Shown here: in pieces, positions 28,724 to 59,084 of the stretch
Layout of the letters: each line of letters begins with the position of its first letter
Position numbering within the stretch: the first letter of the stretch is position 1
Origin: Pyrinomonadaceae bacterium
GTDB taxonomy: Bacteria; Acidobacteriota; Blastocatellia; Pyrinomonadales; Pyrinomonadaceae
NCBI GenBank assembly: GCA_035947355.1
Contig: DASZKF010000293.1
Span: 2,697 to 66,696 of the forward strand
DNA length: 64,000 nucleotides
Direction of reading: 5' to 3'
Notes under the pieces: generated by a model
The model's database searches: none
The model's input: the letters and a program-made list of their open reading frames with translations, nothing else
What the model was told of the DNA's origin: nothing
Program-made: the position numbers and the translations under genes

Positions 28724-28738
28724 TGGCGCGGCGCTTGC
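28724..28738 (+). promoter_or_regulatory. candidate sigma-54 (-24/-12) promoter
   Basis: TGGCGC-GGCGC-TTGC matches TGGCAC-N5-TTGC, including the GG/GC spacing. It lies 63 nt upstream of the first ORF of the tail-like locus and downstream of the bEBP gene. Confidence 0.5.
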
Positions 28739-28800
28739 GTTGACGCGCGCGTGCGTTCTCGGTGCTTGGCGTCGGCGTTTCTCGAAGGCGTTTATCGAAT

Positions 28801-29073
28801 ATGTGCGCAATCAGTGAGGAGCAATCCGCCCGCGAGATCCTGTCATACCTGGCCGAACACGAAGAGGCGCAGGACACGGTCGAAGGCATCGTGGAATGGT
28901 GGCTGTTGGAGCAGAGAATCAAGCAGCAGACGGTCGGGGTCAAAAGGGCGCTCGCCGCCCTGGTGGGGACGGGACTGGTTCTCGAGCGCAAGGGCCGGGA
29001 CGCGAGGCTCCACTACCGCATCAACCGCCACCGGATGCAGGAGATACGTGCGCTGCTCAGTCAGGCGTCGTGA
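28801..29073 (+). CDS. small hypothetical protein, possibly winged-helix-like
   Basis: ATG at 28801 (MCAISEEQSAREILSYLAEHEE...). 'ALAALVGTGLVLERKGRDARLHYRIN' looks like a recognition helix plus wing. First ORF after the sigma-54 promoter. Confidence 0.4.
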   Translation: MCAISEEQSAREILSYLAEHEEAQDTVEGIVEWWLLEQRIKQQTVGVKRALAALVGTGLVLERKGRDARLHYRINRHRMQEIRALLSQAS

Positions 29074-29118
29074 GGCGAGGGCGGGGCCTCGCCGGCCTCG
29101 CGCGTGAGGTGGAGCGGG

Positions 29119-30015
29119 ATGGCTAGCCCCAGTTTAGACCAGGTCGTCGCGGCCATGATGGACACGCTCGACGATTTCTTCCCGCCGGCCCCGGCCGGGC
29201 CGCCGCCGCCCGGCGTCTCGCTCGTCAGCGTCACGGAGAAGCAGGTCGGGCTGGGCGGCCTCCGCGGCCTGGAGACGCGCAGCCCCTTCTCGACCTCGCT
29301 CCTCCGAGGGGTCAGGCTCGACGCGGTCGTCCGCTTCCAGGTCTGGGGCGACACGCCGGCCGCGGCCGACGACCTGATGACGCAGCAGCACGCGCTGCTG
29401 CTCGCCGCCAAGGAGCAGCTCAAGGTCGCGGGCTTCCTCACCGTCGCCGCGCAGTCCACCTCGCTCGTGAACTTCGTCGGCGCCCTCAACTTCTGGCGGA
29501 AGTTCGCCGACTACCACGTGCTCTACGAGTTCGCCTTTCAGGACAGCGGAGACGCCGGCGGGCTCATCGCGCGCATACCCGTCGGGATCGACAGCGTCTA
29601 CAACGAGCAAACCGTCGTCACGGACGAGACGGTGCGCTGGGGCGACGTGGAGGCGCCCGACCTGGAGGTGCGCGCCGGGGTCGCGAGGCCGTTCCGCGTC
29701 AGGGCGCTGTACGTCCTGGCCTCCCTGCCCGCGGGCTGGGACGGCGACGGGGTCACGGTCTCGTCCTCGGTCGGCGGCGTGCCGCAGCAGCGGGGCTTCG
29801 CCAGCGTCCGGGATTTTTTCAACGCTCTTACGCCGGAGCCGGGGACGGTCGAACTCGGGGGTGCAGTCTTCAGCGCCGGGCGTCTCGCCTTTCCGAACGC
29901 GGACTTCCCGGCCCCCATCCTGCTCGCCCGCGGGGGGGATCTCTTTCGCGTGGTGTACGCCGCGCCCCCCCTGAATCACGCCGACGCCGTCGTGTACCTG
30001 CGCGCGCTGGGTTGA
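29119..30015 (+). CDS. hypothetical protein, possible DUF4255/Afp16-like tail cap (terminator)
   Basis: ATG at 29119 after GAGGTGGAG. N-terminal 'LDQVVAAMMDTLDDFF' and 'LDAVVRFQVWGDTPAAADDLMTQQHALLL' loosely resemble the DUF4255 N-terminal pattern. Its position directly before the sheath gene fits. The assignment is weak. Confidence 0.35.
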   Translation: MASPSLDQVVAAMMDTLDDFFPPAPAGPPPPGVSLVSVTEKQVGLGGLRGLETRSPFSTSLLRGVRLDAVVRFQVWGDTPAAADDLMTQQHALLLAAKEQLKVAGFLTVAAQSTSLVNFVGALNFWRKFADYHVLYEFAFQDSGDAGGLIARIPVGIDSVYNEQTVVTDETVRWGDVEAPDLEVRAGVARPFRVRALYVLASLPAGWDGDGVTVSSSVGGVPQQRGFASVRDFFNALTPEPGTVELGGAVFSAGRLAFPNADFPAPILLARGGDLFRVVYAAPPLNHADAVVYLRALG

Positions 30016-30108: not shown

Positions 30109-31818
30109 ATGGCAGAGATGATCCTGCCGGGAGTCTACATCGAGGTGCGGGCCGAGGGGCTCATCGTCCCCGGCCGCGTGACGGTAGGCAACCTGGGCGT
30201 GTTAGGCACGGCGAGCAACGGGCCGGTCGGGGTGCCGGTCATCGTAGGCAGCTACACCGAGGCCCGCGAGCGCTTCGGCGACTTCGACGCCTGGGGCGGC
30301 GGGACGAACAACGAGCTGACGCTGGTGCGCGCCCTCGAACTCGCCTTCGGCCACGGCGCGACGACCGTCTTCGCGCTGCGCGTCAGCTCGCTGGCGGCGA
30401 ACCAGGGGGCGGCGACTTACCTCCTCAGCTCGCCGGGCGGCGACAACGTCACGCTGACGGCGAAGAACCCTGGCACCTGGGGCAACGACCTCCAGGTCAA
30501 CGTCACGGCCGCCGACCAGGACGCCTTCGTCGAAAACGAGACGATTACGGATGACGGGCCTTTCAAATTGGCCTTCCCGCCGGTCGTCGCGAGCGCCCGC
30601 AACCGCGTCCGCCGCCGCATCGCCGCCACCGGCGAGACGCGCTCGCTCGGCATCATCTACGACGACGACCCGGCCGCGCCGGGCCCGAACCAGGTGAAGA
30701 TCAACCGCGCGGACGGGGTCATCACTTTCGGCACGCCCCTGGATGACGACGACATCCTCACCGTCTCCTACGTCGTAGACCGCGCCAGCGCGCGCAAGGT
30801 GACGCTGCGCTACAGGCAGTCGCAGGAGGTCTACACCATCGTGAGCGGCGACGACCTGGTGAGCGAGATCAACCGCAGCCCCGGCGGCTCGGCCCTCGTC
30901 ACGGCCGTGGCCGAGACCAACGCGGGCCAACTGCCCGACTCGTCGGCCGGCCCGAACGCCTTCTCGAACTTCGGCACCGGCACCAACACGCCCGGCGCCA
31001 ACGGCGAGGACGCCGACGCGGGCGACTACCAGGTCGCCCTCAACCTGCTGCTCAACGAGCCGGTGCACATCGTCGTCGCCGCCGGGCAGGACGACAGCTT
31101 CGGCGACGAGCTGAACGCGCACGTCCAGTCGGCCTCGACCGACACGATCAAGGGCGACCGCATCGCGGTGGTCGGCAGCCGCCTCGGCGCGACCGTGGAC
31201 GACCTGCGCGGCCACACGCTCGACAGCGACCGCCTCATCTTCGTCGCGCCCGGCGTGAAGGTGACCGACACCGGCCTCAGGCCGGACGGCACCATCAGCG
31301 GCGACGAGGTGACGCTGCCCGGCGCGTACGCGGCGGCGGCCGTGGCCGGGCTGCTGGCCGGGCTCTCGCCGCACGTCAGCCTGACGAACAAGGTCGTCTC
31401 GATCGGCGGCCTGGAGCGGCGCTTCACGGCGGCCGAGCTGACCCAGCTCGTGCAGAGCCGCGTCTTCGCCCTCGAACAGCGCCAGGGCTTCCGCGTCGTG
31501 AAGGGCATCACGACCTCGACCAACTCGGCCTTCGCGCAGATCACCACCCGGCGCATCGTGGACTTCGCCAAGTACGGCGTGCGCTCGGCGGCCACCCCCT
31601 TCATCGGCCGGCTCAACAACGAGCGGGTGCGCACGGCGCTGCACGGCACGGTCAACCTCTTCCTCGGCGAGATGGTCAACGACGAGATGCTCGTCAGCTA
31701 CGAGCTGGAGGTCACGGCCACGCGCGAGGAGGAGCGGCAGGGCATCGTCCGGGTGAACATGGTGCTCCGTCCCGTGTTCAGCATCGACTTCATCAAGGTC
31801 ACCATGTTCCTCGAATAA
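30109..31818 (+). CDS. contractile tail sheath protein
   Basis: RBS AAGGAGG. N-terminus 'ILPGVYIEV', and C-terminal 'FAL.QRQGFRVVKGITT...RRIVDFAKYGVR' is typical of the phage tail sheath family. 569 aa as a single polypeptide. Confidence 0.9.
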   Translation: MAEMILPGVYIEVRAEGLIVPGRVTVGNLGVLGTASNGPVGVPVIVGSYTEARERFGDFDAWGGGTNNELTLVRALELAFGHGATTVFALRVSSLAANQGAATYLLSSPGGDNVTLTAKNPGTWGNDLQVNVTAADQDAFVENETITDDGPFKLAFPPVVASARNRVRRRIAATGETRSLGIIYDDDPAAPGPNQVKINRADGVITFGTPLDDDDILTVSYVVDRASARKVTLRYRQSQEVYTIVSGDDLVSEINRSPGGSALVTAVAETNAGQLPDSSAGPNAFSNFGTGTNTPGANGEDADAGDYQVALNLLLNEPVHIVVAAGQDDSFGDELNAHVQSASTDTIKGDRIAVVGSRLGATVDDLRGHTLDSDRLIFVAPGVKVTDTGLRPDGTISGDEVTLPGAYAAAAVAGLLAGLSPHVSLTNKVVSIGGLERRFTAAELTQLVQSRVFALEQRQGFRVVKGITTSTNSAFAQITTRRIVDFAKYGVRSAATPFIGRLNNERVRTALHGTVNLFLGEMVNDEMLVSYELEVTATREEERQGIVRVNMVLRPVFSIDFIKVTMFLE

Positions 31819-31831
31819 GGAGAGTACGAGT

Positions 31832-32395
31832 ATGGCAATGACCAACGTCTACACCGGGGCGAACGGGATCCTCGTGTTCATGGCGGCCGGCACCGCCACG
31901 GAGACCGCCGACGCCGACGCCCTGCTCGGAGACCAGATGTACAACCTCTTCGACGTCGGGCGCGTCACCGACGTCGAGGTCTGCGTCAAGACCGAGCTGT
32001 CGGAGTACCACGAGATCGGCCGGCGGCACGCCACTTCGCTCCACCCCGGCAACATCCACGTCAGCGGCAAGGTGGGCCGCGCCTACATCAACGGCGCGCT
32101 CCTCTTCCTGCTGCTCGGGCGCGGCGCGAACCCGAACAACATCGACGAGCCCTACGTCCAGCCGACGCTCCAGATGCAGGTCGTCCTCCAGGACCCGGCC
32201 GTCCCCGAAACGCGCTCGGTGGTGACGATCGAGAACGTGAAGTTCGAGAACTGGTCCTTCGCGCTGCCGGAAGACGACTTCGTGATGGAGAACGTCACGT
32301 TCAAGGCGTTGCGCATCCGCGTGCAGGACGAGGAGGCGCCGTCGCCCGGCGGCGAGCGCGCCGTGAAGACGCCGCAGTTCCCGGAGGCCGGATGA
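31832..32395 (+). CDS. tail tube protein
   Basis: Starts 14 nt after the sheath gene. 187 aa and beta-rich. 'VTDVEVCVKTELSEYHEIGRRH...GNIHVSGKVGRAYINGALL' resembles the tube (gp19/FII-like) pattern. Call based on position and size. Confidence 0.7.
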   Translation: MAMTNVYTGANGILVFMAAGTATETADADALLGDQMYNLFDVGRVTDVEVCVKTELSEYHEIGRRHATSLHPGNIHVSGKVGRAYINGALLFLLLGRGANPNNIDEPYVQPTLQMQVVLQDPAVPETRSVVTIENVKFENWSFALPEDDFVMENVTFKALRIRVQDEEAPSPGGERAVKTPQFPEAG

Positions 32396-32409: not shown

Positions 32410-32877
32410 ATGACGCTGACCGCTGAAGAACTGCTGGCCGGCGGTGCCCTGACCCACGAGGTGGAGGTCCCGCCCGACCTGCTCGGGGCGAACGGCGGCG
32501 GACAGGCCGGCGCGCGGCTGACGCTGCGGCCGCTCACCGTGCGCGACCTCCAGCGCATCGGCCGCGCCGCCCGCGACGACGACGGCCTCTCGGCGGCGCT
32601 GATGATCCAGCAGGCGCTCGTCGAGCCGCCGCTCAAGATGGAGCAGGTCTCGCAACTGCCGGCCGGCCTCGCCCGCTTCCTCGTCGAGCGCATCAACGCC
32701 ATCAGCGGCGTGAGCACGCCGCGCGGCGAGCTGGAGGAACTCGTCCAGGCGCCGCTCGCCAAAGCCTGCTTCGTCCTCGCGAAGGAGTTCGGCTGGACGC
32801 CCGAGCAGGTCAGCGGGATGACCATCGGTCAGATCCTGCTCTACCTGCAAATGGCCGACGGGGGGGATGGCGCATGA
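32410..32877 (+). CDS. tail assembly chaperone-like protein (gpE/gpG analogue)
   Basis: 'ARLTLRPLTVRDLQRI' resembles the conserved chaperone motif. Its position between the tube gene and the tape-measure slot fits. A G7 run lies just before the stop. Confidence 0.5.
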   Translation: MTLTAEELLAGGALTHEVEVPPDLLGANGGGQAGARLTLRPLTVRDLQRIGRAARDDDGLSAALMIQQALVEPPLKMEQVSQLPAGLARFLVERINAISGVSTPRGELEELVQAPLAKACFVLAKEFGWTPEQVSGMTIGQILLYLQMADGGDGA

Positions 32878-34214
32878 GTGCGCGCGCGCTCAACGCGCTC
32901 GCCGCGGGCCGGGCCCCGGCCTGCTGGCGGCGGGAGACGGCGCGGGAGGCCGCGAGGCCGGGCGCGCTGCGGCGCGCCTGCGCCTGGGTCGCGGAGTCGG
33001 CCCCGCCCGTCAGGCTGCGCGCGGAGCCACTCTTCGGCTCCTGCCTGTCTTCATTCGCGAGCGGCGACGGCCGCGCGGCCGACCCGCCGCAGGCCGTCCC
33101 CTGCTCGCCCCGGCCCGCGGGCGCGACTCCCGACGACCCGCCTCAGCGGCCCGCACCTTTCTCGTGCGCGCACGGCGACGCGAAGCCGGCGCCGCCCGAG
33201 TTGCCCGAGCGGGCAGACCGCGAACTGCTCTGCCGGCTGGCGGGCGAGGAGACACGACCGGCCGACTCCGCGAAATCCACGCGGCGCGAGTCGGAAGTTT
33301 GCCACCCTGAGCCGCGCCCGCGCGCGCGCCGCGCCGCCGCGCCCGAGTGCGGGGCCTCGGGACCCAGACCTTCGCCTCCGCCCGAGCCGCCACGGCCCGC
33401 GCGGGACGTGCGTCCGCAGTCCCGCCCGGCCGACCTGTGTGACGCGACACGTTCGGCCTCGGCGCAGAGCCGCTGGCGGGACGAATTGAGCGGGCGCACG
33501 CGCCGCGTACTGGCGCGCGCGGGGTCGCCGCCGGCGGCGGCCGACGCGCGCGAGGAGAAGCCCTTCGACGGACTCTGGGCTCAGCCGGTCGCGGCAGGGC
33601 CGGAGGCCCCGCCCGGGCTGTTGAGCAACCTGGTCAACCCTCCGCGCTCGACCGAACCGGCCGCCCGCGACGAACGCGTCCCGGCCGGTAGAAGGAAGCC
33701 TGTCAACCCGGCGGACTCCGAGCCCCCCGCACGACGCACCAGGCCGCCCCTGACCCAAGAGGGGGCGGGTCTCGCCTCGTCCGAACGGTTCGCCGCCCCG
33801 GGCGTCGGAAGTGCGAACGGCGCACCGGCACCGCGCAGGCATTCGCACGCGTCGGCCGCGGCCGGAGCGGCGCGTGCGCCCGCTCAAGCAGACGGCCCGC
33901 CGCACGGGCACCGGCGGGCCGTCACTCCGGAGGGGGAGTATCTGGGGCCGCTGCGTGGCGTCTTAGACACGCAGGCGGCGGACGACGACGCCGAAGGTTT
34001 GTGGGCCAGAGGCGGCGACCCGCCCGCGCTCGCCGCGCAGTTGCCGCCGCTGATCCCGGCCCCGGCCGGCTGGCCCGCGCCCGGCGTCGCCTCGGCGGCG
34101 GCCCGGCAGGGCGCGCGCGACGAGGCCGCCGCCGACGAAGACCTTGAGGCGCTGGCGGCGAAGATCAGACGCATCCTCGAAGAGGACGCGCGCCGCCACG
34201 GGATTGACGTTTAG
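32874..34214 (+). CDS. Pro/Ala/Arg-rich low-complexity protein occupying the tape-measure slot
   Basis: ATGA overlap with the chaperone gene. 446 aa, the only ORF spanning the interval with consistently GC-rich third positions. Ends in the amphipathic 'DEDLEALAAKIRRILEEDARRHGIDV'. Confidence 0.45.
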   Translation: MSARALNALAAGRAPACWRRETAREAARPGALRRACAWVAESAPPVRLRAEPLFGSCLSSFASGDGRAADPPQAVPCSPRPAGATPDDPPQRPAPFSCAHGDAKPAPPELPERADRELLCRLAGEETRPADSAKSTRRESEVCHPEPRPRARRAAAPECGASGPRPSPPPEPPRPARDVRPQSRPADLCDATRSASAQSRWRDELSGRTRRVLARAGSPPAAADAREEKPFDGLWAQPVAAGPEAPPGLLSNLVNPPRSTEPAARDERVPAGRRKPVNPADSEPPARRTRPPLTQEGAGLASSERFAAPGVGSANGAPAPRRHSHASAAAGAARAPAQADGPPHGHRRAVTPEGEYLGPLRGVLDTQAADDDAEGLWARGGDPPALAAQLPPLIPAPAGWPAPGVASAAARQGARDEAAADEDLEALAAKIRRILEEDARRHGIDV

Positions 34215-34262: not shown

Positions 34263-34787
34263 ATGCGACCGATGCTCGACGACATCGAGCTGCCGCAGGT
34301 GCAGGAGATCGCCACGCTTGAGCGCCGCGTCCTCGCCGAGCACAAGCCGCCCGGCATGTCCGGCAGCCTCTTGCAGGACATGGGGCGGCGCCCCGCGCGT
34401 CTCACCCTGTGGGGCGTCGCCACCGGCCCCGAGGCGCGCGCCTTCGTCGAGAAGCTCGACGAGAAGTTCCGGGCCGCGGCGCCCGTCCCCTTCGTCGGCG
34501 ACATCGTGGCCGACGCCGACATCGAGCGGGTGGTGATCGAGAACCTGCGCGTGCAGGACCTCGCGGGCAAGCCCGAGCGCTTCGCCTACGTGCTCACCCT
34601 GCGCGAGTTCGTCGAGCCGGTCGCGGCGGAAGACCTCTCGCCGCTCGACGAGAGCATCGCCGGCGACGCGCTGGGCCTGATGGACAACCTCGTCAACGGC
34701 TTCGAGATCGTCGAGCGGCTCTCGGCCTTCGTGGGGCGCTTGACCGAACTGAATGAGGCCCTGCGGCGCCTGGCGAACCAGCCGTAG
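34263..34787 (+). CDS. hub/tube-initiator-like protein (Mu gp43 / Afp7 N-domain-like), short paralog
   Basis: ATG at 34263 after GGGAGGTGAGG. 'MLDDIELPQVQEI...LAEHKPPGMSGSLLQDMGRRPARLTLWGV...PVPFVGDIV...LAGKPERFAYVLTLREF' is clearly paralogous to the N-terminus of 35249..37120. Confidence 0.5.
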   Translation: MRPMLDDIELPQVQEIATLERRVLAEHKPPGMSGSLLQDMGRRPARLTLWGVATGPEARAFVEKLDEKFRAAAPVPFVGDIVADADIERVVIENLRVQDLAGKPERFAYVLTLREFVEPVAAEDLSPLDESIAGDALGLMDNLVNGFEIVERLSAFVGRLTELNEALRRLANQP

Positions 34788-34812: not shown

Positions 34813-35202
34813 ATGGAAGAGAACGTTCTGGAGAAACTCAAAGAGGCGCTGCAAGAGCTTTCCACCCTGCTCGACGACCCGGCGGTGCAGACGGCCATCC
34901 GGGCCGTCCCCGACGCGATCATGGACCCCGTCGTCGGGGGGCTCAAGACCGTGCTCAACGTCATCAAGGACGCGCTCAAAGAGTTGAAGAACAGCCTCGG
35001 CAGCGTCACGGCGCTCGAAGACCTCCTCAAGACGGTCAACGACCTGCTGGCGGCGGCCGAGGGGCTGGCGCCGGGGCAGAAGGGCACGCTCAACACGGTC
35101 AAGACCATCGTCAAGACGCTTCAGGACCTGCCCGGCATCGCCGACATCGAGGAGATATTGACCCTCATCGGCCAACTCGTCGCCAAGCTGGAGGCGCTCT
35201 GA
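34813..35202 (+). CDS. small all-helical Leu/Lys/Asp-rich hypothetical protein
   Basis: ATG at 34813 after AGGGGGAGGA. 129 aa with heptad-like 'LKEALQELSTLL...LKTVLNVIKDALKELKNSL...VKTIVKTLQDL'. Confidence 0.45.
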   Translation: MEENVLEKLKEALQELSTLLDDPAVQTAIRAVPDAIMDPVVGGLKTVLNVIKDALKELKNSLGSVTALEDLLKTVNDLLAAAEGLAPGQKGTLNTVKTIVKTLQDLPGIADIEEILTLIGQLVAKLEAL

Positions 35203-40296: not shown

Positions 40297-40319
40297 GCCG
40301 CGCGAGGGAGGAGCATCGC

Positions 40320-43585: not shown

Positions 43586-43596
43586 TCGGGGAAGAC

Positions 43597-51400: not shown

Positions 51401-53695
51401 GGCGGCCGGCCGACCGACGTTGAGGTTGTCGGCGCGGCCCCGGCCACGACCTTCCTCGACGAGATCGTCGCCGGCATCAACGCGGTCTTCCCCGGCCTCG
51501 CGTCGGCGACCGGCGACGACCGTTTGCTTCTGACTTCGCCGACGCGTGGCGAGGGGAGTAGCGTCGAGGTGCTGCCGCTGCGCGTGCTTGAGGTGATCGA
51601 GTACCCGCCGGAGGAGGCGGCCGACCCGACCGCCGCCATGCCGCCGCGCGCCGTGAGGCACGGCGACCGCTGGTTCGTCGCCAACGAAGGCGCGGCCGAC
51701 GCCGACCTGAGGGTCGAGCTGAGCGCGCCGCACGGCGCGGTCGGGCCGGGGCTGATTAACATGACGACGGGCGCGCGCCTGCGCCTGACCGGGATCGTCC
51801 ACCCCGGCGAGCGGGCCGAGTTGTGGCGCGACGAAGCGGGCGGCCTGCGCGCGGAGATCGTCGCCGCCGACGGGAGCCGGCGGCGCGTGCACCCTTCGGG
51901 CGTGCTCGCAGGCTCGGCCGGCCCGCAGGTCTCGGTGCCGTTTGAAGGCGAGTGGGAACTGAGCGAAGGTGAGGCCGGCCCGCCCGCGACCCTTGAACTG
52001 AACGACCCGACGTCACACTCGGTCGTCATCCTTCGGGCGCGTGACGCGGGCGGCGCGCCGGGCCGCGTCGGGGTGCGCGTGACCGAGGCGCAGACGTTCG
52101 GCGACGAGTCACCGCACGGCACACCCGAGGGCAGCTTCGAGAAGTTGACCGGGCGCGTGCGCGCCGTCGCGGACGGACTCCGTCTGACGGACGCCTCAGG
52201 GGCCGAGACGGCGCGGCTGCGGGCGGGCGCGGGCGTCGCGCTCGAAGACTACCGCGACCGCGTGGTCGTCGTCGCCGGGCTTCTGTACGGCGGCGAGGGC
52301 GAGCCGCCGCCGACGCTGGTCGTCGAAAAGATCGCCGCGCTCTTCGACGTGACGCTGAGGCGCGAGCCGGGCGACGCCCCGGACGAGCCTCACCGGGGCG
52401 TGACAGTCGGGCCGGGCGTGGACGCGCGCGACGAGTTGACGCGCCGCATCAACGCCGGCCCGCAGCCTTCGCGCTTCGTGCGCGCCTCCGAGGCCGCGAA
52501 GGCCGACACGCTCGCGCTGCCGCGCGGGCGCACGCAGTGGGCCTACCTCGACTGCTTCGGCACGCGCTTCAACAGCGCGCGCTTCGACGAGTCGTATTTC
52601 CCGGGCGGGGTGTGCGCCGAACGCGCCATCTTCAACGTCAGCCGCTTCACGCGCCACCCGCCGCGCCACGAGGTGACGGTCTTCGCCGCCGGCTCCCCGC
52701 TGTTTGACGCGGGCGACATCGCCGACCCGCCCAACCTGCTGTTCAAGCTGCGCGGCAGCCGGGACGCCGTCTCCAGCCACCTCCGGGAGCGATTCTCCCC
52801 CCGTTTACAACAACTGGTGAAAGATTATGACATCTCCGGCCCGCCGTCGGCGGAGCTGCTACAAACCTTGACGGGCGAGCTTAATAAACTGCTCGGCGGC
52901 CCCTCGCTGTTCAACGAGCCGCGCTTCGCGGGGGTCATCCTGAGGCCGGAGACCCGGAGCCTGATCGGCCAAAGACCGGCGGGCGAAGACCTCCTTCGCC
53001 TCAACAGGTTGCTGATCGAAGACGCTTACCCGAAGGAGATAGCGAAGAGCCTCGCCGCCGCCGCCGGCGTCATCGAACCGCCCACCCACGTCCGCTTCCG
53101 CTGGCCGCAGCACCGGCCCGGCGCTTTCGTCGTCAACCTGCCGGCCGACCTGCCCCCGCGCTTCGGCGGGCGGTTCAACGACACATACTTCTCGCGGCCG
53201 GGCGACGCGCCCGAGGAGTTCCAGGACGTGGTGACGGAGCCGGCCGCGGACCCCGACTTCATCGTCAAGCGGCTCGCGCAGTCGGCGCTCGTCACGGCCG
53301 CCCCGGTCGCGAGCGTGCCCATCGGCTTCGAGGCCGTGACCATGCCCTTCCGCCGGCCGCGCCGCCTGACCGGCGGCAACGACGCGCGGCCGGCGCGGAT
53401 GTACATCGCGGAGAAGGACGTGCCGGGCTTCATCATGGTCGAGGCGCGTTGGCCCGGCGCGCGGGGCAACGCCGTCGCGCTGGCCGCGCGCAAGTCCGGC
53501 CCGGCGCGCTTCGACGTGACGGTCAGTTTCGAGGGGGCGCGTTTCGAGAGCGCCCGCCGCGTCGTGCTCGGCGGCGAGCAGTTGCCCGCCCTCGCAGATG
53601 ACATCCTCCGCCCCAGCCCGGTCGGCCTGCTCCAGGCCAAGGCCGCCGGCGTTCACGTCAGGGTGACGCGCGACCGCGCCCTGCCCGACGACTGA
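48422..53695 (+). CDS. giant gpI-like baseplate protein (tail-protein TIGR02242-like N-domain) with eight internal tandem repeats
   Basis: N-terminus 'ILNYLPGTFRA...LSHWVDHAD...IAALYGL.P...LKRYVRTLLEGTMTVQGI' resembles the P2 gpI/TIGR02242 pattern. A repeat array follows, then a conserved-looking C-terminal body. Starts 1 nt after the baseplate J stop. Confidence 0.7.
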   Translation: MPLKTDRILNYLPGTFRALPKPTALHSVADAFGHELLLAENSLAAVMLSHWVDHADRGAEFIDDLARIAALYGLSPRPEEDVEEFREHLKRYVRTLLEGTMTVQGILRITAEALGLHIADDYAALDAWWTRADDALTRVEPRGDDAAALLFGAPAAEAGGEAARPAAFTGLVDLRGGVDLRPTPNLSVAVDGAPAVNVDFAARLGDLSSAKLPDIVKAINDALGARVASAGGGRLRLASTTLGPASRLEVGEAEGDAAPRLLGLLPKAYRGADATPASVTGLADLSGGADLTEARYLRLLVDGKLLAEVDCAAGSPGVKTLAQVAAAINAQFPAAIASHDGRFLRLTSPTTGQASSIVFERPAAQDAKEKLFGPVENFHLGRDARPAEVVGANDLGFGVDLSGRSLVRVQVDNQPAYTVDCAGEDPARTRPAEIAAALNNRLGAGVASHDARFVRLTSPTRGAAGSIRFEPLPPGEDATELIFGVRPRSFQGAPPRRARLVGRAVTASGPAGPRVNLSAVHLLRVSIDGGPPVEIDLREGVEDVRGATLDELRDAINRALGAEVASHDDERLTLASPTVGGASRVSVEPLTVTRRRRFVTRAFIMDEAALPVFGFFERRARGEGATRARLVGTADLSRGVDLGQARFIRLAVDGAEGVDVDCAGTRPRATLIGEVVRAVNDKFGFELAAATPDNKFVVLTSPTAGAGSRLAFEPPRAADASDALLGRGPGVFRGRDAAGIKFVGTVDLSGGVDLSAADKVVVAVDGQTREVSCAGADPAQTSLNEIVMAINVAFNAVVASREGARVALTSPTAGAGSRVEFPAQAEPNAVAAIFGVRPPRAYRGANALPARVAGLKSLQDGADLRVARFLRLAVNGATPLDIDCASRVGAGGDRSQVGLDDIVGAVNDALSGAGAPAAASHDGARLSITTNAAGGDERIELLSHTAGDAREKLFGRAEATQGSDPAPASVKGESDLLTPVNLSERRTLRIAVDGGRPTDVEVVGAAPATTFLDEIVAGINAVFPGLASATGDDRLLLTSPTRGEGSSVEVLPLRVLEVIEYPPEEAADPTAAMPPRAVRHGDRWFVANEGAADADLRVELSAPHGAVGPGLINMTTGARLRLTGIVHPGERAELWRDEAGGLRAEIVAADGSRRRVHPSGVLAGSAGPQVSVPFEGEWELSEGEAGPPATLELNDPTSHSVVILRARDAGGAPGRVGVRVTEAQTFGDESPHGTPEGSFEKLTGRVRAVADGLRLTDASGAETARLRAGAGVALEDYRDRVVVVAGLLYGGEGEPPPTLVVEKIAALFDVTLRREPGDAPDEPHRGVTVGPGVDARDELTRRINAGPQPSRFVRASEAAKADTLALPRGRTQWAYLDCFGTRFNSARFDESYFPGGVCAERAIFNVSRFTRHPPRHEVTVFAAGSPLFDAGDIADPPNLLFKLRGSRDAVSSHLRERFSPRLQQLVKDYDISGPPSAELLQTLTGELNKLLGGPSLFNEPRFAGVILRPETRSLIGQRPAGEDLLRLNRLLIEDAYPKEIAKSLAAAAGVIEPPTHVRFRWPQHRPGAFVVNLPADLPPRFGGRFNDTYFSRPGDAPEEFQDVVTEPAADPDFIVKRLAQSALVTAAPVASVPIGFEAVTMPFRRPRRLTGGNDARPARMYIAEKDVPGFIMVEARWPGARGNAVALAARKSGPARFDVTVSFEGARFESARRVVLGGEQLPALADDILRPSPVGLLQAKAAGVHVRVTRDRALPDD
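48915..51570 (+). repeat. eight tandem ~95-110-aa coding repeats inside the gpI-like gene
   Basis: Each unit reads 'G..DLS.G(V/A)DL....(L/V)...VDG.....(V/I)DCAG......L.(E/D)(I/V)(V/A).AIN..(F/L)...(V/I)ASHDG..L.LTSPT.G..S.(I/V).FE......A...LFG'. I counted eight '...(A/T)S(P/T)T.G..S' cores. Confidence 0.7.
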
Positions 53696-53719: not shown

Positions 53720-54652
53720 ATGAAGATGGCTAACGACGTAGAGCCTTACAGGGCCAGCAAACCCGGCGACCTGTGGACCGCCGAACTGTGGAACGAGACG
53801 CAGCAGGATATCAGGGCTGACATCGGCAAGCGCATCGACGCCGCCATCAAAGCCATCGAAAGAGTCGGGCAGGCCGGCAACTCCGACAAGCTGGAGAACC
53901 AGACGGCCGACGAGCTGACGGCCAGCATCCTCCAGAAGGTTCGCCAGGAACTGCCGACGCTCACCGGCTACCGCAAGCTCTTCAAGCGGCTGGAGCCGGG
54001 CAAGGAGACCCTCATCGAGCACAAGCTCGGCACCTTCCCGCTCGTCGACCTCTACCGCCTGCGGAAGTTCCGCGCCGTCTGCTCCGAGGACGACCAGCGG
54101 ACGGCCGAGGACGTCTACTTCTACATCTACCACAGCAGCGAGCGGAGGATGCGCTTCACGCCCGAAGGCGGCGGCGCCACCGAGACGATAGACATCGAGA
54201 TGACCGACCCCTCGTTCGAGGCCCCGTTCCGCATCCCGTTCGCCGACCTGCTCTCGCAGTACCGCGTCCAGTACACCGACACCTCGACGCTCGAAGACCT
54301 TGAGACCGAGTTCTGGGACGCCTTCTTCGCCGACCCCAACGACAGGTTCGACGACGCGGACGCCTGCCACTCGCCGTGGGTCGACCGGTGCTGCGGCGAG
54401 CGCCGCACCGTCCGTGACCTGAAGCAGCGGGGCGACTGGGACGAGATTTGGCTCAAGCTGCTCCCGGAGAAGACCGTCAACCTCTTCCGGCAGGCCAACC
54501 TCGTCGAGGCGGGCGGCGGGGCCAAGCCGGCCGACATCACGGTCTACCAGCACAGCTTCAACGTGCTCGGCCTGACCTACACGCCGCAGCCCCGCAACGA
54601 CGTAGTACAACCGTCCGAGGACGAGAGGCTGTTGGTGCTCCTGAAGGTCTAA
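53720..54652 (+). CDS. hypothetical protein, possible fibre-associated/adaptor protein
   Basis: RBS AAAGGAGA. 'LWTAELWNETQQDI' and 'AGNSDKLENQTADELTASI' resemble motifs common in tail-fibre N-termini. Located between the baseplate and the fibre-like gene. Confidence 0.4.
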   Translation: MKMANDVEPYRASKPGDLWTAELWNETQQDIRADIGKRIDAAIKAIERVGQAGNSDKLENQTADELTASILQKVRQELPTLTGYRKLFKRLEPGKETLIEHKLGTFPLVDLYRLRKFRAVCSEDDQRTAEDVYFYIYHSSERRMRFTPEGGGATETIDIEMTDPSFEAPFRIPFADLLSQYRVQYTDTSTLEDLETEFWDAFFADPNDRFDDADACHSPWVDRCCGERRTVRDLKQRGDWDEIWLKLLPEKTVNLFRQANLVEAGGGAKPADITVYQHSFNVLGLTYTPQPRNDVVQPSEDERLLVLLKV

Positions 54653-54689: not shown

Positions 54690-57600
54690 ATGAAACTGAG
54701 TGACCGCTTCGACGGCAGCGGCGCGCCCTTCGAGGGCGACCGCACGGCCCTCCTGCGCGGCCTGCCCGCGGGCGCGCAAATCCGGCGCGCGGCGGCGGTC
54801 GTCTCCCCGTTCGACGCCACGCGCGGGCTCGACCCGTTCGCCGAGACGATCACCTTCGACCGCGCCTCCGGCGGCTGGGGGGCGACGAAGCGGAGGAACG
54901 TGGCGGCGGCGGGCGGGCCGACGACGGACAACTGGGTGGAGGTGGACTTCCACCGCCGCCGGACGCTCGCCGGCCTCCGGGGCACGAACCTCAACCCCTC
55001 GACGCTTCAGGTCGACTTCGGCGGCGCCTACGTCGAGATCAACGCCAGCGGGGGCGTCCTCTCACCCCCGCAAACCAACGCCTTCCGCGTGACGGCCGAC
55101 AGCGCGACGCTGCCCGGCCTGACCGTGACCAAGCTCAAACTGACGGCCCAGCCCACGTCGCCGTCGCCCGCGGGCACTCCCGACCTGTCGGAGGTGACCG
55201 TCCGCAGCGCCCCCTCCAACCTCACGCTCCGGCTCGGGCAGGGGCCGGCCGTCTGGACTCACGCCGGCGAGATGACGCGGGCCGAGGAGACGCCCGACTT
55301 CGCGCTGGCGCTCCAGTCCTTCCTGACCGGGGCGGAGGTCGAGAACGGCTTCTACGTCGTCCCGCTGGTGCTGCACTCCGACACCATCGCGCGGCTGACG
55401 GTCGAGCTGGAGATCGACTACCTTTTGCAGGAGAGCGTCCTGCCCGAGGGGCTGACCGACGTGGTCTTGCCCTTCGACTTCGGCGGCGCGCCCAAGTCCG
55501 GGGCCGAGGCGCTGCTCGTCAAAGTCCCGGCCAACTCCCGCGTCGCGCCGCGCGGGGTCAAGGCGAGGGTGGCCGGGGCCTTCCAGGAGACGCGTATCGT
55601 CTACGCCCCGACCGAAGGGCTCGCGCCGGGCGGGGCCGCCGACGTGTCGCCCGCCACGTCGCAGGCCCAACCCGTCACGCCGCCGGCCGACCTGAAGGCG
55701 ACGGCGCTCGACCTCCTGCTCAACGTCGAGCGCCCCGCGCGTCTGCAACTCGACGTGCGCGACGACCTCGACGGCAAGCCCGGCAGCGCCTCGCTGCTGC
55801 CCGCGCCCGTCGCCTTCGACGTGCCCGGCCCCGTCGGGCAGCGCCCGTCGCCGCAGGAGGCGCAGCGGTTCAACTGGGTCAGCGTCCCGCTGCCGGCCGA
55901 GCTGCAATTCCGCGGAGGCAAGACCCACTGGCTCATCTTGCAGAGCGTTGACGGCGCGGCGAAGTGGCGCGCCGCCCCGGCGGCCGCGGCGGCGCTCGGG
56001 TTGCAGAACACGCGGGACGGCGGGCTCTCCTGGAGGGCGACGGCCGTGGCCGGCGTGCCCGGCGCGGCGGCCTCCTTCTACCGCCTGCGCCGCAAGCCGG
56101 AGCAGTTCGAGATGCCCGTCGCGCTGCGGGTGGGGGCGGGCGAGCGGGCCGTCGTCGTCAGCCTGGACCGCTTCAAGCCTTCGGGCCGGGTCGACTTCAC
56201 ACTCGACATTGACGAAGTATCGCAGGCGTTCAACCAGTACCTCGACGGGAGCGGGGCCGACGCCTGCGTCGGGAGCAAGCACCTGGCGAACGGCGACTTC
56301 GAGAGGTGGCAGGCCGTCGGCGACCGGTTCGGGACGCCGGCCGCCATCGGCGCCGCGGAGGAATTGGACGCGCAGGTCATCGCCTTCACGCCGGACGGAC
56401 GGACGGCCTACGTCGGCGGCGACGACGTGATCGCGTTCGCGGACGCGCAGTGCGACGAGCTGCTGCCCGAGCGGCTGGAGGTCAGCGGCACGCCGCGCTC
56501 CATCGTCTTCCACCCGGACGGCACGCGCGCCTACGTCGTCGCGGGCCAGAGGGTGTTGGTGCTCGACACCGCCACGCGGAAGGCGCTGAGCGGGTTCGCC
56601 AGCCGCGACGAGACGGTCGTCGCGCTGGGCGTGAGCCCCGACGGCCGCACGCTCTTCGTCGCGGAGGAGCAGGCCGCCTGGGCCATCTCGACGGTCGCGC
56701 TGGAGGGGGAGGTGCTGACCGGCAAGGCGACGGTGCAGCAGAGGACGCAGGCCGCGCTCCAGTTGGGGTCGAATCAATTCATCACCGACATGGCGCCCGC
56801 GCCCGACGGGCGGCGGCTCTACCTGCTGGTGAGGAACTCCGGTGACGGCCCGGAGTCGGAGGGCGAGGTTCAGGTGTACGAGGCCGCCACGCTGCGGGCC
56901 GCGGCCGCGCCCATCACGGTCGGCCGCTTCCCGACCGACATCGCGCTCTCGCCGGATGGCAGGAGGGCCGTGGTCGTCAACGACAGCGACATCAGCGTCA
57001 CCATCGTCAACCTCGAACGCGGCGCCGTCGTGTCCACCATCGCGCTCGACGACACGCCCGACCGCGCGGCGTTTCTGCCCGACGGGCGGCGGGCCCTGGT
57101 CACCAAGCAGGAGAGCCTGACGGTAGATGTCGTAGACCTCGAACGCCGCGCGCTGGCCCAGCCCATCACGCTGCCGGACGGGCCGCCCGACTCGCTCGCC
57201 GTCAGCACGCAGGGCGACCGCGTCTACTTCGGGGTGGGGGGGATTCGGCCCTTGATCTCCGTCCCGCTGGGCGTGCGGCTGCCGGTCGAGTGGAACCTGA
57301 CGGCGGGGCGCGTGAGGCCGGTCTGCCTGCCCGCGCCCGCGCACCTCGCGGCGCTGCTCGGCAGCCTCGGGCAAGAGACTCCGGCGGCGGCGAGCATCTC
57401 CCAGGTCGTGCCGGTCGCGGCATCGTGCGTCTACGAGTTCAGCTTCTGGGGCCTCGCCACAGAGCCGGACGCGACGGCCGAGGTCTTCTGGCTGGCCGGC
57501 GGCTGCGGCCTCTCGCGCACCGACCGCGTCCCCATCGAAGCGTCGCCGCAGGCGCCCGCGCCGCCGCCCACGACGCCCGTCCCGCTCACCACCCTGGCGC

Positions 57601-59084
57601 TCGCCTTCGCCGCGCCGCAAAGACCGGAGCTGGTGCTGCACCGCGTGACGCTCACGTCGCCGCCCGGGGCCGAGCAGGCGGAGGTGCGCTTCAGCGCGCC
57701 CGAGGGCGTGGCGGCCGTCGTCGACCGCGCCTCGCTGACGGCCACGAACGAAGCCGTCGCCAACTCCGACTTCAAACTCGTCGAGCAGGGGCAGCTCTCC
57801 GGCTGGGCGCTCAGGCCCGCGGGCGCCGTCGGCGCCTCCATGCTCGCGGCCGAGGGCGCGCTCCGGCTGCGCAACGCGGGCGCCGACGAGGTCGCTCTGA
57901 CGCAGGAGTTCGAGGTCGAGGGCGGCCAGCCTTTCGAGCTTGAGTTTCAAGGGGGCGCGCAGCCGCCAGCGAACGCGCGCGCCACTTCCCGCGTAGAGGT
58001 GCGCTGGCTCGCGGCCGACGGGTCGCAGGCGGGCGAGCCCGCGGTCCTGAAGATCGGCGCTTCGGGCTTCGGCTCCTCGCTGGCGAAGGGCGTGAGCCCT
58101 GACGCGGCGACGCGCGGCGAGGTCAGCCTCTTCGTGCCGCCCGGGGCGTCGCTGGAAGCCAAACGCGTCTCGCTCAGATTCCCCAAGCCGTCGCTCGTCC
58201 CGCTCACCTTCGTGTCGGAGGCGCCGGGAGAGCTGACGGTGACGGGCTTGCAGGTGGCCTTCGAGCAGGCCGAGCCGAAGCCGCCGCCGATCCCGCCGAG
58301 GGGGCTGTGCGCGTCTACGCCGGCCGGCATGTCGCCGGGCGACGAGTGCGCGGAAGAGGAGGGCTTCTGCCCCTGCTGCGGGTGCGCCTCGGAGATGAGG
58401 GAAGTGCGGCCGGCCGTGACGCCTGCCGGCCGGCCGGCGCGGGTCGTACGTTGCGCCGAATGCGGGACCGAGTTGGTGCGCGTCGGCGGGCCGCTCGTCG
58501 CCGGGGCGAAACCGGTCGTGTCCACGCGCCTTGAGGTGCGGCGACCCGTCATCGAATCACGCCAGCGCGTCGAGACGCACCACCATCACGAGGTGGCAGG
58601 CACGCCGCCCCACGGCCCCGCGGATAAGCACTCAGAGGCCGCACCCGCGGAAGGGCTGACGGAAGAATTGACGGACGCCGCGCCCGCAGGAGAAGTCACT
58701 GAGACTCCCCCCGCGGAAGAGGTCACGGAAACTGCCCCCGCGGAAGGGACGACGGAAGCCGCGCCGGCGGCAGAGGCGGCGGAAACTTCACCGGCTGAAG
58801 AAGCAACCGGAGTTGCTCGCGCGGAAGAGGGGACTGAGGCCGCGCCGGCAGGGGAACGGACGGAAGCCGCGCCGAAGGCCGCCGAGCCTTCGCTGACCGA
58901 CATCTCTGGCATCGGCAAAGTGCGGGCGCGGCAGTTAAAGGAAATGGGCATCGGCTCCGTGGCGGAACTCGCCGCCGCGAACCCGGAGGACTTAACCCGG
59001 CTGCCGCTCGTGTCGTTGAAGTTGGCCGAACAATTCGTCGAGAAGGCGAAGGAGCTGACGAAGGGGGAGAGCGGCGACTCCTAA
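54690..59084 (+). CDS. 1464-aa fibre-slot protein with YVTN-type beta-propeller, jelly-roll-like domains, zinc ribbon, acidic repeats and C-terminal helix-hairpin-helix
   Basis: Propeller blades at about nt 56390-57240 ('SIVFHPDGTRAYVV', 'LGVSPDGRTLFVA', 'MAPAPDGRRLYLL', 'IALSPDGRRAVVVN', 'AAFLPDGRRALVT', 'LAVSTQGDRVYF'). 'NGDFERW' and 'NSDFKLVEQGQLSGW' are CBM-like starts. 'CPCCGC...CAECG' is a zinc ribbon. 'LTDISGIGKVRARQLKEMGIGSVAELAAANPEDL' is an HhH motif. Confidence 0.6.
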   Translation: MKLSDRFDGSGAPFEGDRTALLRGLPAGAQIRRAAAVVSPFDATRGLDPFAETITFDRASGGWGATKRRNVAAAGGPTTDNWVEVDFHRRRTLAGLRGTNLNPSTLQVDFGGAYVEINASGGVLSPPQTNAFRVTADSATLPGLTVTKLKLTAQPTSPSPAGTPDLSEVTVRSAPSNLTLRLGQGPAVWTHAGEMTRAEETPDFALALQSFLTGAEVENGFYVVPLVLHSDTIARLTVELEIDYLLQESVLPEGLTDVVLPFDFGGAPKSGAEALLVKVPANSRVAPRGVKARVAGAFQETRIVYAPTEGLAPGGAADVSPATSQAQPVTPPADLKATALDLLLNVERPARLQLDVRDDLDGKPGSASLLPAPVAFDVPGPVGQRPSPQEAQRFNWVSVPLPAELQFRGGKTHWLILQSVDGAAKWRAAPAAAAALGLQNTRDGGLSWRATAVAGVPGAAASFYRLRRKPEQFEMPVALRVGAGERAVVVSLDRFKPSGRVDFTLDIDEVSQAFNQYLDGSGADACVGSKHLANGDFERWQAVGDRFGTPAAIGAAEELDAQVIAFTPDGRTAYVGGDDVIAFADAQCDELLPERLEVSGTPRSIVFHPDGTRAYVVAGQRVLVLDTATRKALSGFASRDETVVALGVSPDGRTLFVAEEQAAWAISTVALEGEVLTGKATVQQRTQAALQLGSNQFITDMAPAPDGRRLYLLVRNSGDGPESEGEVQVYEAATLRAAAAPITVGRFPTDIALSPDGRRAVVVNDSDISVTIVNLERGAVVSTIALDDTPDRAAFLPDGRRALVTKQESLTVDVVDLERRALAQPITLPDGPPDSLAVSTQGDRVYFGVGGIRPLISVPLGVRLPVEWNLTAGRVRPVCLPAPAHLAALLGSLGQETPAAASISQVVPVAASCVYEFSFWGLATEPDATAEVFWLAGGCGLSRTDRVPIEASPQAPAPPPTTPVPLTTLALAFAAPQRPELVLHRVTLTSPPGAEQAEVRFSAPEGVAAVVDRASLTATNEAVANSDFKLVEQGQLSGWALRPAGAVGASMLAAEGALRLRNAGADEVALTQEFEVEGGQPFELEFQGGAQPPANARATSRVEVRWLAADGSQAGEPAVLKIGASGFGSSLAKGVSPDAATRGEVSLFVPPGASLEAKRVSLRFPKPSLVPLTFVSEAPGELTVTGLQVAFEQAEPKPPPIPPRGLCASTPAGMSPGDECAEEEGFCPCCGCASEMREVRPAVTPAGRPARVVRCAECGTELVRVGGPLVAGAKPVVSTRLEVRRPVIESRQRVETHHHHEVAGTPPHGPADKHSEAAPAEGLTEELTDAAPAGEVTETPPAEEVTETAPAEGTTEAAPAAEAAETSPAEEATGVARAEEGTEAAPAGERTEAAPKAAEPSLTDISGIGKVRARQLKEMGIGSVAELAAANPEDLTRLPLVSLKLAEQFVEKAKELTKGESGDS
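58630..58880 (+). repeat. imperfect tandem Glu/Thr/Ala/Pro-rich coding repeats
   Basis: Repeated '(A/P)PA(E/G)E(V/G)TE(T/A)' units: AAPAEGLTEE, AAPAGEVTET, PPAEEVTET, APAEGTTEA, SPAEEATG, AAPAGERTEA. Confidence 0.6.

Follow-up and report, generated by a model that had tools for sequence, protein, structure and literature searches.

Headless contractile tail-like gene cluster in Pyrinomonadaceae with candidate enzymes associated with its tube initiator, and its relatives across phyla

Contractile tail genes on a bacterial chromosome may belong to a prophage, to its decaying remains or to a machine that the host has made its own, and which of these applies is the question raised by a gene cluster in a metagenome-assembled genome (MAG) of a Pyrinomonadaceae bacterium (Acidobacteriota; genome approximately 70% GC). 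The cluster lies in a stretch of 64,000 nucleotides (contig DASZKF010000293.1 of assembly GCA_035947355.1, positions 2,697 to 66,696), hereafter the window, and consists of 21 co-directional + strand genes, g01 to g21 (28801-59084), preceded by a gene for a sigma-54-dependent bacterial enhancer-binding protein (bEBP; 27054-28469). Judged from its genes, it probably encodes a complete headless contractile tail-like particle under host control, the most likely task of which is to deliver enzymes into the envelope of another cell. A domesticated stand-alone tail-like machine in an Acidobacteria-like host had already been proposed from the letters and open reading frames (ORFs) of this DNA (the sequence-only reading). 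The host assignment proved correct and the case for domestication is now much stronger, because relatives occur in 327 species-level genomes, a complete genome shows housekeeping genes on both flanks and host-type regulators adjoin the cluster.

All 21 ORFs are intact and have a third-position GC (GC3) of 0.86-0.98, which is a coding-type pattern. Intergenic gaps range from -4 to 93 nt, four of the junctions being 4-nt overlaps of the ATGA/GTGA type, and the GC content of the cluster is the same as that of its flanks. The sequence-only reading had counted 22 co-directional ORFs after one promoter; its observations on packing and overlaps hold, but the count is 21 and becomes 22 only with the bEBP gene. 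The starts that it had given for the tail-like core (30109, 31832, 32410, 32874, 34263, 35249, 44090, 45138, 45952, 46310, 46780, 48422, 53720 and 54690) were all reproduced. In what follows, L-numbers designate related loci from other genomes and P-numbers homologous proteins.

From the sheath to the fibre slot the gene order is identical to that of the tail and simple baseplate module of phage Mu (gp39-gp49), a gene-for-gene match to the annotated record NC_000929 that had been anticipated from the sequence. Profile searches support, as previously called, the contractile sheath (g03, 30109-31818; PF04984, PF17482; phrog_279 E 9e-52), the baseplate hub of the P2 gpD / Mu gp44 / gp27 type (g14, 44090-45112; phrog_52 E 5e-13, phrog_196 E 3e-10, VgrG_rel), the central spike with its gpV/VgrG-like OB fold and beta-helix (g15, 45138-45938; Phage_base_V E 1e-6, VgrG_rel E 1.5e-10, TIGR03361, VgrG C-terminal models), the gp25-type sheath initiator/wedge protein (g17, 46310-46783; phrog_975 E 3e-21, with GPW_gp25 and Sheath_initiator below cut-off), the baseplate J / gp6-type wedge protein (g18, 46780-48420; PF04865 E 1e-15; phrog_6 E 1e-33) and, weakly, the tail assembly chaperone (g05, 32410-32877; Phage_TAC_7 E 2e-4). 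The L004 homologue of the hub additionally has a faint E217_GP41 match. Identity is 45-78% across phyla for the sheath, 58-77% for baseplate J and 62-87% across the family for the chaperone, and the stop codon of the chaperone gene overlaps the next start (ATGA or GTGA) in most loci. The closest solved sheath structures are remote (phi812, E 5e-12; Haloarchaeal H. borinquense Cis2, 1e-9; R2 pyocin, 1e-3).

The roles of six further proteins, the tube, the tape-measure slot, the spike tip and g19, g20 and g21, rest on position, size and conservation, as g04, g06, g16, g19, g20 and g21 gave no significant Pfam, PHROG, NCBIfam, PDB-profile or hhalign match for a tail role. The putative inner tube protein g04 (31832-32395) is always encoded 3' of the sheath gene and is 42-74% identical across the family; it has no Pfam, PHROG, NCBIfam, PDB or Mu gp40 match. 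The Ala/Pro/Arg-rich tape-measure-slot protein g06 (32874-34214), also without a family match, measures approximately 400-480 aa family-wide with conservation confined to the C-terminal 35-65 aa. At the spike-tip slot stands g16 (45952-46284), a Pro/Gly-rich protein of 110 aa that is 68-80% identical across phyla and has no PAAR, DUF4280 or PDB match. The labels PAAR-like for g16 and gpI-like for g19 remain positional, the PAAR, DUF4280, TIGR02242 and P2 gpI models all being unmatched. Profiles of T4 gp19-type tubes and DUF4255, which the sequence-only reading had listed as checks, found no match at E<=0.01 in any protein. Directly 5' of the sheath gene, g02 (29119-30015, 298 aa) is a candidate tail terminator or cap with a weak phrog_123 tail-terminator match (E 0.003); it is family-specific, recurs with 28-58% identity in nearly every locus of the family and has no PDB or Mu gp37 match. 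The small all-helical g08 (34813-35202) occupies a baseplate slot, has weak PHROG tail/hub matches (E ~2e-3) and is poorly conserved. Just 5' of the chaperone stop codon lies a run of seven G (32859-32865), and the -1 frame, that of the tape-measure slot, is open for 451 nt upstream. A programmed -1 frameshift at this run, fusing chaperone to tape-measure-slot protein, was rejected as a family feature, because the G run is absent in nearly all relatives, the -1 frame of low-GC relatives is closed after 7-19 nt and only the ATGA/GTGA overlap is conserved.

The hallmark of the family is g09 (35249-37120, 623 aa), which by homology and predicted fold is a tube initiator of the Mu gp43 type. The protein is predicted to comprise a tube-like N-terminal module, a transthyretin-like domain, an OmpA-like domain (OmpA E 9e-11) with a PG_binding_1 insert (E 3e-15) and a C-terminal beta domain; that PG_binding_1 is inserted inside the OmpA-like domain follows from the OmpA-typical NRRTE motif, which resumes after the insert. 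Full-length g09 is conserved at 42-72% identity in every phylum, monoderms included. PF07157 (DNA_circ_N), the N-terminal domain of Mu gp43, matches residues 10-79 of the g09 homologues P0301 and P0314 with 28.8 and 28.0 bits (cut-off 21), but does not match g09 itself directly. The predicted g09 model (predicted local distance difference test, pLDDT, 83.7) found in Foldseek the Mu baseplate chain 9ki1_0 (122 columns, probability 1.0, E 1e-2), along with Pal, OprF and PorE and with phage DNA-circularisation, Dit and DUF6046 proteins. A PDB profile search with the initiator module gave no match, and hhalign of g07 and the N-terminus of g09 against Mu gp43 gave a probability <1 with single-sequence templates; since these hhalign runs are uninformative, the link to gp43 is drawn from the Pfam matches in homologues and the fold search. 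A first module of this kind is g07 (34263-34787), paralogous to residues 1-120 of g09 and with a weak DUF6046 match, in agreement with the two Mu-gp43/Afp7-like modules that the sequence-only reading had placed at 34263 and 35249. The tube initiator of Mu, gp43, is a hexamer and contains a LysM module that binds peptidoglycan (PMC11915804).

Four genes between the initiator and the hub encode the candidate cargo and its putative partners. The candidate effectors g10 (37159-40296) and g12 (40802-43585) each contain two Ig-like modules, have approximately 560 residues in common which correspond to these two repeated modules, the first ~600 residues of g10 being paralogous to those of g12, and end in different HExxH domains, HEYGH in g10 and HELGH in g12. 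In the g12 model residues 40-580 are predicted at pLDDT >90 as Ig-like beta-sandwich arrays. In most relatives the Ig-like modules continue the g09 polypeptide, whereas here they are encoded by separate genes: the 1536-aa P0241 aligns over 99% of its length, at 47% identity, with concatenated g09 and g12, and P0362, P0366 and P0381 are direct fusions of the g10-type domain to OmpA/PG_binding hub proteins. From these sequences, g10 and g12 are read as detached C-terminal extensions of the tube initiator. The g10 domain is rare, with 24 cluster representatives at E<=1e-30 among 1.84 billion, always C-terminal, and H205, E206 and H209 (numbered on the 445-aa g10 C-terminal query) are invariant; the g12-type C-terminal domain occurs also in L004, L032, L040, L100 and L103. 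Both HExxH domains are candidate effector enzymes, with putative protease activity and toxicity.

Elsewhere in the family the variable C-terminal enzymes include an arginine deiminase (E 2e-96), a phospholipase D, a PETase-like alpha/beta hydrolase and an HExxH domain, and other loci have a GH5 glycosidase or an S8 peptidase in the cargo slots. By analogy, the pattern is that of a polymorphic effector on a structural carrier, the carrier being the tube initiator. The candidate payload genes do lie inside the baseplate block, as the sequence-only reading had pointed out, but they are not an odd insertion there: as the cargo is fused to the initiator in most relatives and split from it here, their position would reflect a family-wide mode of loading. 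Each candidate effector gene is followed by a small gene for a candidate immunity protein or chaperone. The HEAT-repeat protein g13 (43582-44085; HEAT_2 E 2e-21) has a small HEAT protein as counterpart directly 3' of the g12-type domain in three other contexts (L004/L031, L103 and L040). The 160-aa g11 (40293-40775), proposed from its position and its 4-nt overlap with g10, has no family match and no homologue in any related locus obtained.

Three large or conserved proteins close the cluster. In the third wedge slot, the Mu gp48 / P2 gpI position, the 1757-aa g19 (48422-53695) contains eight tandem repeats of approximately 110 aa (residues 165-1048) which are mutually 35-47% identical by self-BLAST; homologues of 1419-1687 aa follow baseplate J directly in every locus examined, and neither Pfam, NCBIfam (TIGR02242, P2 gpI) nor hhalign (gp48) supports the assignment. 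Precomputed Pfam annotation of g19 homologues shows a faint FlaEY_3rd match only. The conserved distal protein g20 (53720-54652, 310 aa), which has no family match, has a counterpart of 292-341 aa in the slot in L030, L031, L113 and L114. The candidate receptor-binding protein g21 (54690-59084, 1464 aa) combines a conserved N-terminus, a 7-bladed beta-propeller (Lactonase/YncE-type propeller matches), a Cys cluster, an acidic repeat linker and a C-terminal helix-hairpin-helix (HHH_5 E 1.5e-11); in relatives the slot holds 1178-1407 aa, with HHH_5 retained in the Pyrinomonadaceae locus L031. The triad is conserved, J being followed by proteins of approximately 1650 aa, approximately 330 aa and 1200-1460 aa. 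Within residues ~1200-1464 of g21 are the Cys cluster CPCCGC...CAECG, a T/E/A/P-rich acidic linker and the helix-hairpin-helix, which is of the RadA/helicase type and usually DNA-binding.

Taken together, these parts suggest the following course of events. The bEBP would activate a sigma-54 promoter at 28724-28739, from which the 21 genes would be read as one operon. Assembly would be phage-like and ATPase-free: spike g15, tip g16 and hub g14 may nucleate the baseplate, with the two gp43-type modules g07 and g09 on the hub and g17, g18 and g19 as wedges, g05 and g06 would set the length, tube g04 and sheath g03 would polymerise and g02 would cap the end. The cargo would ride on the tube initiator, here with g10 and g12 split off, presumably docking to g09 via the shared modules, and with g11 and g13 as putative partners. 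Upon binding of g19-g21 to the target, sheath contraction would push the spike, the hub and the tip of the initiator into the target envelope, where the OmpA-like and PG_binding_1 domains would meet peptidoglycan and the enzymes would act.

Whether such a particle could instead be part of a phage was addressed through the genes that a phage would need. Capsid/head, portal, terminase, holin and endolysin families were found in none of the 17 upstream, 21 cluster and 6 downstream ORFs, in line with the absence of such genes from the window noted earlier, and the PHROG endolysin matches to g09 are limited to PG_binding_1 (residues 338-394). In the complete chromosome of Geoalkalibacter halelectricus the cluster is flanked by housekeeping genes, lying between mla/ppk genes and lon. 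Among 435 ORFs 5' of the cluster in related loci, clustered into families, no head family is common to the loci. Searches of 50,697 GenBank phage records by tblastn gave four partial matches to the sheath (24-30%), all in Bacillus or Lysinibacillus phages, partial matches of 23-35% to J, mainly in Bacillus phages and haloarchaeal viruses, and no match to the hub; IMG/VR relatives with a major head or neck protein appear only at 30-36% sheath identity. An AAA+ assembly ATPase is likewise missing from the 21 proteins (Pfam, NCBIfam), the sole AAA+ protein in the window being the sigma-54 activator, and none was seen in the clusters of relatives.

The locus is not confined to the Acidobacteria, to which the sequence-only reading had assigned its host, but is a member of a cross-phylum family. 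A scan with one genome per species found a relative in 327 genomes, and sheath and J homologues of 58-78% identity occur in many phyla. The best 80 loci (45-65% identity), to which the following composition refers, come from about 10 phyla: Acidobacteriota (~19 loci), Actinomycetota (~18; Nocardioides, Cellulomonas, Streptomyces, Amycolatopsis and others), Pseudomonadota (~14; roseobacters, Chromatiales and others), Chloroflexota (~12), a few loci each from Cyanobacteriota, Desulfuromonadota, Vulcanimicrobiota, Bacteroidota and Gemmatimonadota, and one from an archaeal MAG of the Methanotrichaceae. By tblastn, the order g02, sheath, tube, chaperone, g07, g09, hub, spike, g16, gp25, J is kept in essentially all. 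The archaeal locus (L077, on a contig of 879,906 bp) has the full cluster, with two copies of the OmpA/PG_binding initiator (14274-18983; from 19579), and represents either a real inter-domain transfer or a binning error; peptidoglycan is not known from Methanothrix. A sister group at 41-51% sheath identity (L104, L105 and L108 from Bacteroidota, L107 from Chloroflexia and L006-L009 from IMG/VR) lacks a g02-type gene, has proteins of 1350 aa and 940-1070 aa encoded 3' of the tape-measure slot and appears headless in the stretches seen.

Literature searches found no description of this family, with incomplete coverage and earlier cataloguing in a survey being possible, and the cluster seemingly belongs to a widespread and undescribed lineage. 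That this is a major phage-type contractile injection system (CIS) lineage, horizontally spread over no fewer than 10 phyla, monoderm Actinomycetota and perhaps archaea among them, and characterised by tip-borne polymorphic enzymes on or split from a peptidoglycan-binding tube initiator, is put forward tentatively, with a little less confidence than doubt.

Control by the host is suggested by the region ahead of the cluster. The bEBP (27054-28469, +; Sigma54_activat E 3e-65, AAA_lid_14, HTH_8) is likely the dedicated activator of the cluster, and a bEBP is encoded at the equivalent position in the Acidobacteriota and unclassified MAG loci L004, L041, L054, L055, L067, L074, L075 and L090. Between the bEBP gene and g01, the non-coding DNA can be aligned with its counterpart in L004, a second Pyrinomonadaceae contig, despite strongly different base composition, the conserved islands being the near-palindrome GGnCAAATTTnTCC, several GGACA-containing blocks and a TGGC-N8-TTGC motif located ~45-60 nt ahead of the first start codon. 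A near-palindrome at 28599-28612, GGGCAAATTTGTCC, is a candidate bEBP binding site (upstream activator sequence) and is kept as GGACAAATTTATCC in L004. The pattern scan located a candidate sigma-54 promoter, TGGCGCGGCGCTTGCG (28724-28739, +; GG at -24 and GC at -12), the first base of which is the left coordinate that the sequence-only reading had given to the locus; at the equivalent place in L004 stands TGGCCCACAGGTTGCA with the same spacing. The one candidate promoter of that reading thus has its counterpart in L004, and the evidence for it is position and conservation, because the motif by itself is not above chance. A sigma-70-like site was not found between the bEBP gene and the sheath gene. 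The 90-aa g01 (28801-29073), without a family match, has homologues of 40-60% identity only in the bEBP-carrying loci L004, L041, L054, L055 and L075.

In other lineages different regulators fill the same position. Among the 435 upstream ORFs the families present in more than four loci are SARP/BTAD activators (19), bEBPs (7) and one unresolved family in Actinomycetota (7), and in four roseobacter loci (L082, L092, L094 and L099 from Yoonia, Shimia and Roseobacter; ~7300-8750) a complete paralogue of rpoN, the sigma-54 gene, lies directly 5' of the cluster. As a SARP or an rpoN paralogue takes the place of the bEBP, control appears always to be of host type with an interchangeable regulator, and this swap of sigma-54, SARP and RpoN-paralogue control at one position is a natural experiment in bringing domesticated phage parts under host control.

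How does the cluster relate to the known contractile systems? With Mu it shares, besides the gene order, a gp43-type (DNA_circ_N) initiator with a peptidoglycan-binding module and the use of a chaperone and a tape measure without an ATPase. Unlike in Mu, there are no head, transposition or lysis genes at this locus, the module is OmpA-like with a PG_binding_1 insert and not LysM, Ig-like modules and enzymes lengthen the initiator, and the distal proteins reach giant size (1757 and 1464 aa). No sequence similarity to Mu could be detected for the sheath, tube, cap and third wedge protein; in hhalign against single-sequence templates the tube profile reached a probability of 0.2 with gp40, and the N-terminus of g19 with gp48 and g02 with gp37 remained <1. 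The resemblance to Mu is therefore one of gene order and the gp43-type module, not of sheath or tube sequence. R-type tailocins (R2 pyocin, carotovoricin) are similarly headless, chromosomal, equipped with a chaperone and a tape measure and free of an Afp15-type ATPase. In contrast to them, this locus has no holin/endolysin cassette, the family is under sigma-54, SARP or RpoN-paralogue control, whereas regulation of R-pyocins is of the SOS type, and its tube initiator bears enzyme domains, whereas killing by R-tailocins is attributed to membrane depolarisation alone; the family also spans ~10 phyla and is not genus-restricted, and the R2 sheath is a marginal match only (E 1e-3).

The extracellular contractile injection systems (eCIS) of the Afp/PVC type, including AlgoCIS, the cyanobacterial thylakoid-anchored CIS, the Streptomyces CIS and the haloarchaeal type VI secretion system (T6SS), are like this family stand-alone, host-controlled injectors that have toxins associated with them and occur widely among environmental bacteria. 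They also have in common with it the core of sheath, gp25, baseplate J and VgrG-like spike, which does not discriminate as it is common to all contractile systems. On the other hand, the present locus has no AAA+ assembly ATPase, no DUF4255 cap (Afp16) and no gp19-type (PF06841) tube, the tube profile having no match in the PDB, and its gene order differs. In eCIS the cargo genes stand at the 3' end of the locus and their products are loaded into the tube lumen, while cargo is here fused to the tube initiator or encoded beside it. The lack of an Afp15/Pvc15 ATPase, which the sequence-only reading had taken to set the locus apart, is real, but separates it only from Afp/PVC eCIS and not from phage tails or R-tailocins. 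The sheath of the haloarchaeal "T6SS", H. borinquense Cis2 (9ezm), was discarded as a close relative: it is the closest Afp-type sheath, belongs to clade IIa with an ATPase and matches over the N-terminal 134 residues only (E 1e-9). The tail-like cluster GSU0972-0992 of Geobacter sulfurreducens, derepressed in a gsu1771 mutant, was likewise considered and placed outside the family as an Afp-type system, because it has an AAA ATPase and gp19-type tubes.

The T6SS offers an analogy for the cargo, as its established evolved-effector logic places a toxin domain on a tip or tube part (VgrG, PAAR or Hcp), sometimes as a split gene, followed by a small partner gene. Here, however, a phage-type tail supplies the carrier, its tube initiator, in place of VgrG, PAAR or Hcp, and no genes for a membrane complex (TssJLM), a ClpV/recycling ATPase or TssA-like proteins are present. 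The cluster is neither an Afp/PVC-type eCIS nor a classical R-tailocin.

Other explanations of the locus have to be weighed against enzyme delivery into another cell. It is unlikely, if worth serious thought, that a cytoplasmic contractile system fires inside its producer in a Streptomyces-like manner and serves regulated cell death or developmental lysis. Such a system would sit well with the absence of lysis genes, signal peptides and membrane anchors, with developmental-type regulators (SARP, sigma-54) next to the cluster and with the many filamentous or multicellular carriers (Chloroflexota, cyanobacteria, actinomycetes), and cytoplasmic CIS are documented in Streptomyces and Chloroflexota (PMC10066040; PMC12998442). 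It nevertheless fits poorly, because the peptidoglycan-binding module at the tube tip would have no cytoplasmic substrate and phospholipase D, GH5 and S8 peptidase are directed to envelope or extracellular substrates; moreover, the large distal propeller proteins resemble receptor binders, and the described cytoplasmic CIS are of the Afp-type lineage with an ATPase, to which this locus does not belong. A membrane-anchored T6SS-like apparatus firing across the producer's own envelope is highly improbable. The OmpA-like domain recalls the extensions of TssL/TagL (weak TIGR03350 match), sigma-54/bEBP control is also known for T6SS (for example PMC3439928) and an Afp-type CIS of an archaeon operates in this manner (PMC11566945), but TssJLM-like, transmembrane, ClpV and TssA-like proteins are absent from the cluster, the OmpA-like domain sits on a cytoplasmic initiator without a signal peptide, and a tape measure with a chaperone points to particles of fixed length.

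That the cluster is a cryptic or decaying prophage remnant, a functionless tail module after loss of head and replication genes, is hardly more credible. Its 3' border would suit this origin, with a tyrosine-integrase fragment (59091-59441, +; ORF of 116 aa; PF00589 at 22 bits, below the family cut-off), a tRNA-Ser(CGA) gene with its 3' end toward the cluster (59502-59591, -; ARAGORN) and a toxin-antitoxin pair, and so would the Mu-like order of the tail genes. These borders, the sigma-54 activator on one side and the integrase remnant plus tRNA on the other, are those described in the sequence-only reading. A decaying module would not, however, be expected to have all 21 ORFs intact with coding-type GC3, headless, syntenic relatives (45-78% sheath identity) in 327 species-level genomes, linked host-type regulators and a GC content equal to the flanks. 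The least probable possibility, scarcely to be entertained, is that the cluster is the tail half of an intact prophage with its head genes elsewhere in the genome. It is fed by a view that is limited to 64 kb of a 67-kb contig, and is opposed by the 28 kb of metabolic genes upstream, the tRNA gene downstream, the housekeeping genes on both flanks in the complete G. halelectricus chromosome and the lack of a shared head family in the 435 upstream ORFs of related loci.

The interpretation as a headless particle that delivers enzymes into another cell's envelope, which we prefer, has evidence against it as well. The whole family is known from genes alone, and the wider genome of this host is unseen, as the window covers 64 kb of a ~67-kb source contig with ~3 kb outside. 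For the tube, tape measure, tip, third wedge protein and cap, the assignment is solely positional. The pattern scan for sigma-54 motifs returned 8 matches with 15.7 expected. None of the 21 proteins has a signal peptide or transmembrane segment and none forms a lysis cassette, so that no evident route of release is encoded and an intracellular mode of action keeps some probability. The HExxH domains of g10 and g12 have no characterised relative and that of g10 has no PDB match, while the C-terminal part of the g12 model is of low confidence (pLDDT 40-77) and its Foldseek output is dominated by Ig-like arrays. Finally, the LysM module of Mu gp43 is described as purely structural (PMC11915804), and by analogy the OmpA-like and PG_binding_1 domains of g09 may be purely structural too.

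With respect to the neighbourhood, the upstream 28 kb encode lipid, isoprenoid and transport functions, including a MacB-type transporter and a beta-lactamase. On the - strand, the genes of a long biosynthetic cluster (11700-25414) all point the same way and encode two ketoacyl synthases, an acyl carrier protein, an HMG-CoA reductase, amine-oxidase-type and halogenase-type flavoenzymes, a carotenoid oxygenase of the RPE65 family, an acyltransferase, a redoxin and FG-GAP/ASPIC proteins, and its product may be a lipid, a polyene or an isoprenoid. Alone on the + strand among - strand genes, a protein of 1256 aa (6907-10677) has DUF7948, SBBP beta-propeller repeats and an Ig-like domain. Beyond the tRNA-Ser gene, the genes for a Gp49/HigB-type toxin and an HTH (XRE) antitoxin overlap by 1 base (59787-60451) in a stretch of lower GC (0.58 at 60-62 kb versus 0.70 elsewhere). 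At 61396-63350 a TPR protein precedes an unusual regulator, which has a Fis-type HTH_8 ahead of a receiver domain and lacks the sigma-54 AAA+ module.

CIS are mined as programmable protein-delivery devices and are drivers of microbial warfare in soil, and the characterised systems other than T6SS are nearly all Afp/PVC-type eCIS or narrow-range R-tailocins. To these the present locus would add a third, widely distributed design, which is compact and ATPase-free and in which the cargo is apparently swapped by changing the C-terminus of one structural protein. Its carriers include members of soil phyla that are abundant yet little understood (Acidobacteriota, Chloroflexota, Vulcanimicrobiota) as well as cultivable Actinomycetota, roseobacters, cyanobacteria and Geoalkalibacter. 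Among the cultivable carriers are G. halelectricus, G. ferrihydriticus, Nocardioides soli DSM 105498, Cellulomonas massiliensis JC225, Yoonia sediminilitoris DSM 29955, Phormidesmis priestleyi ULC007 and Amycolatopsis minnesotensis JCM 14545. The finding would thereby make it testable how slow-growing soil Acidobacteria compete and whether a tube initiator serves as a carrier of effectors.

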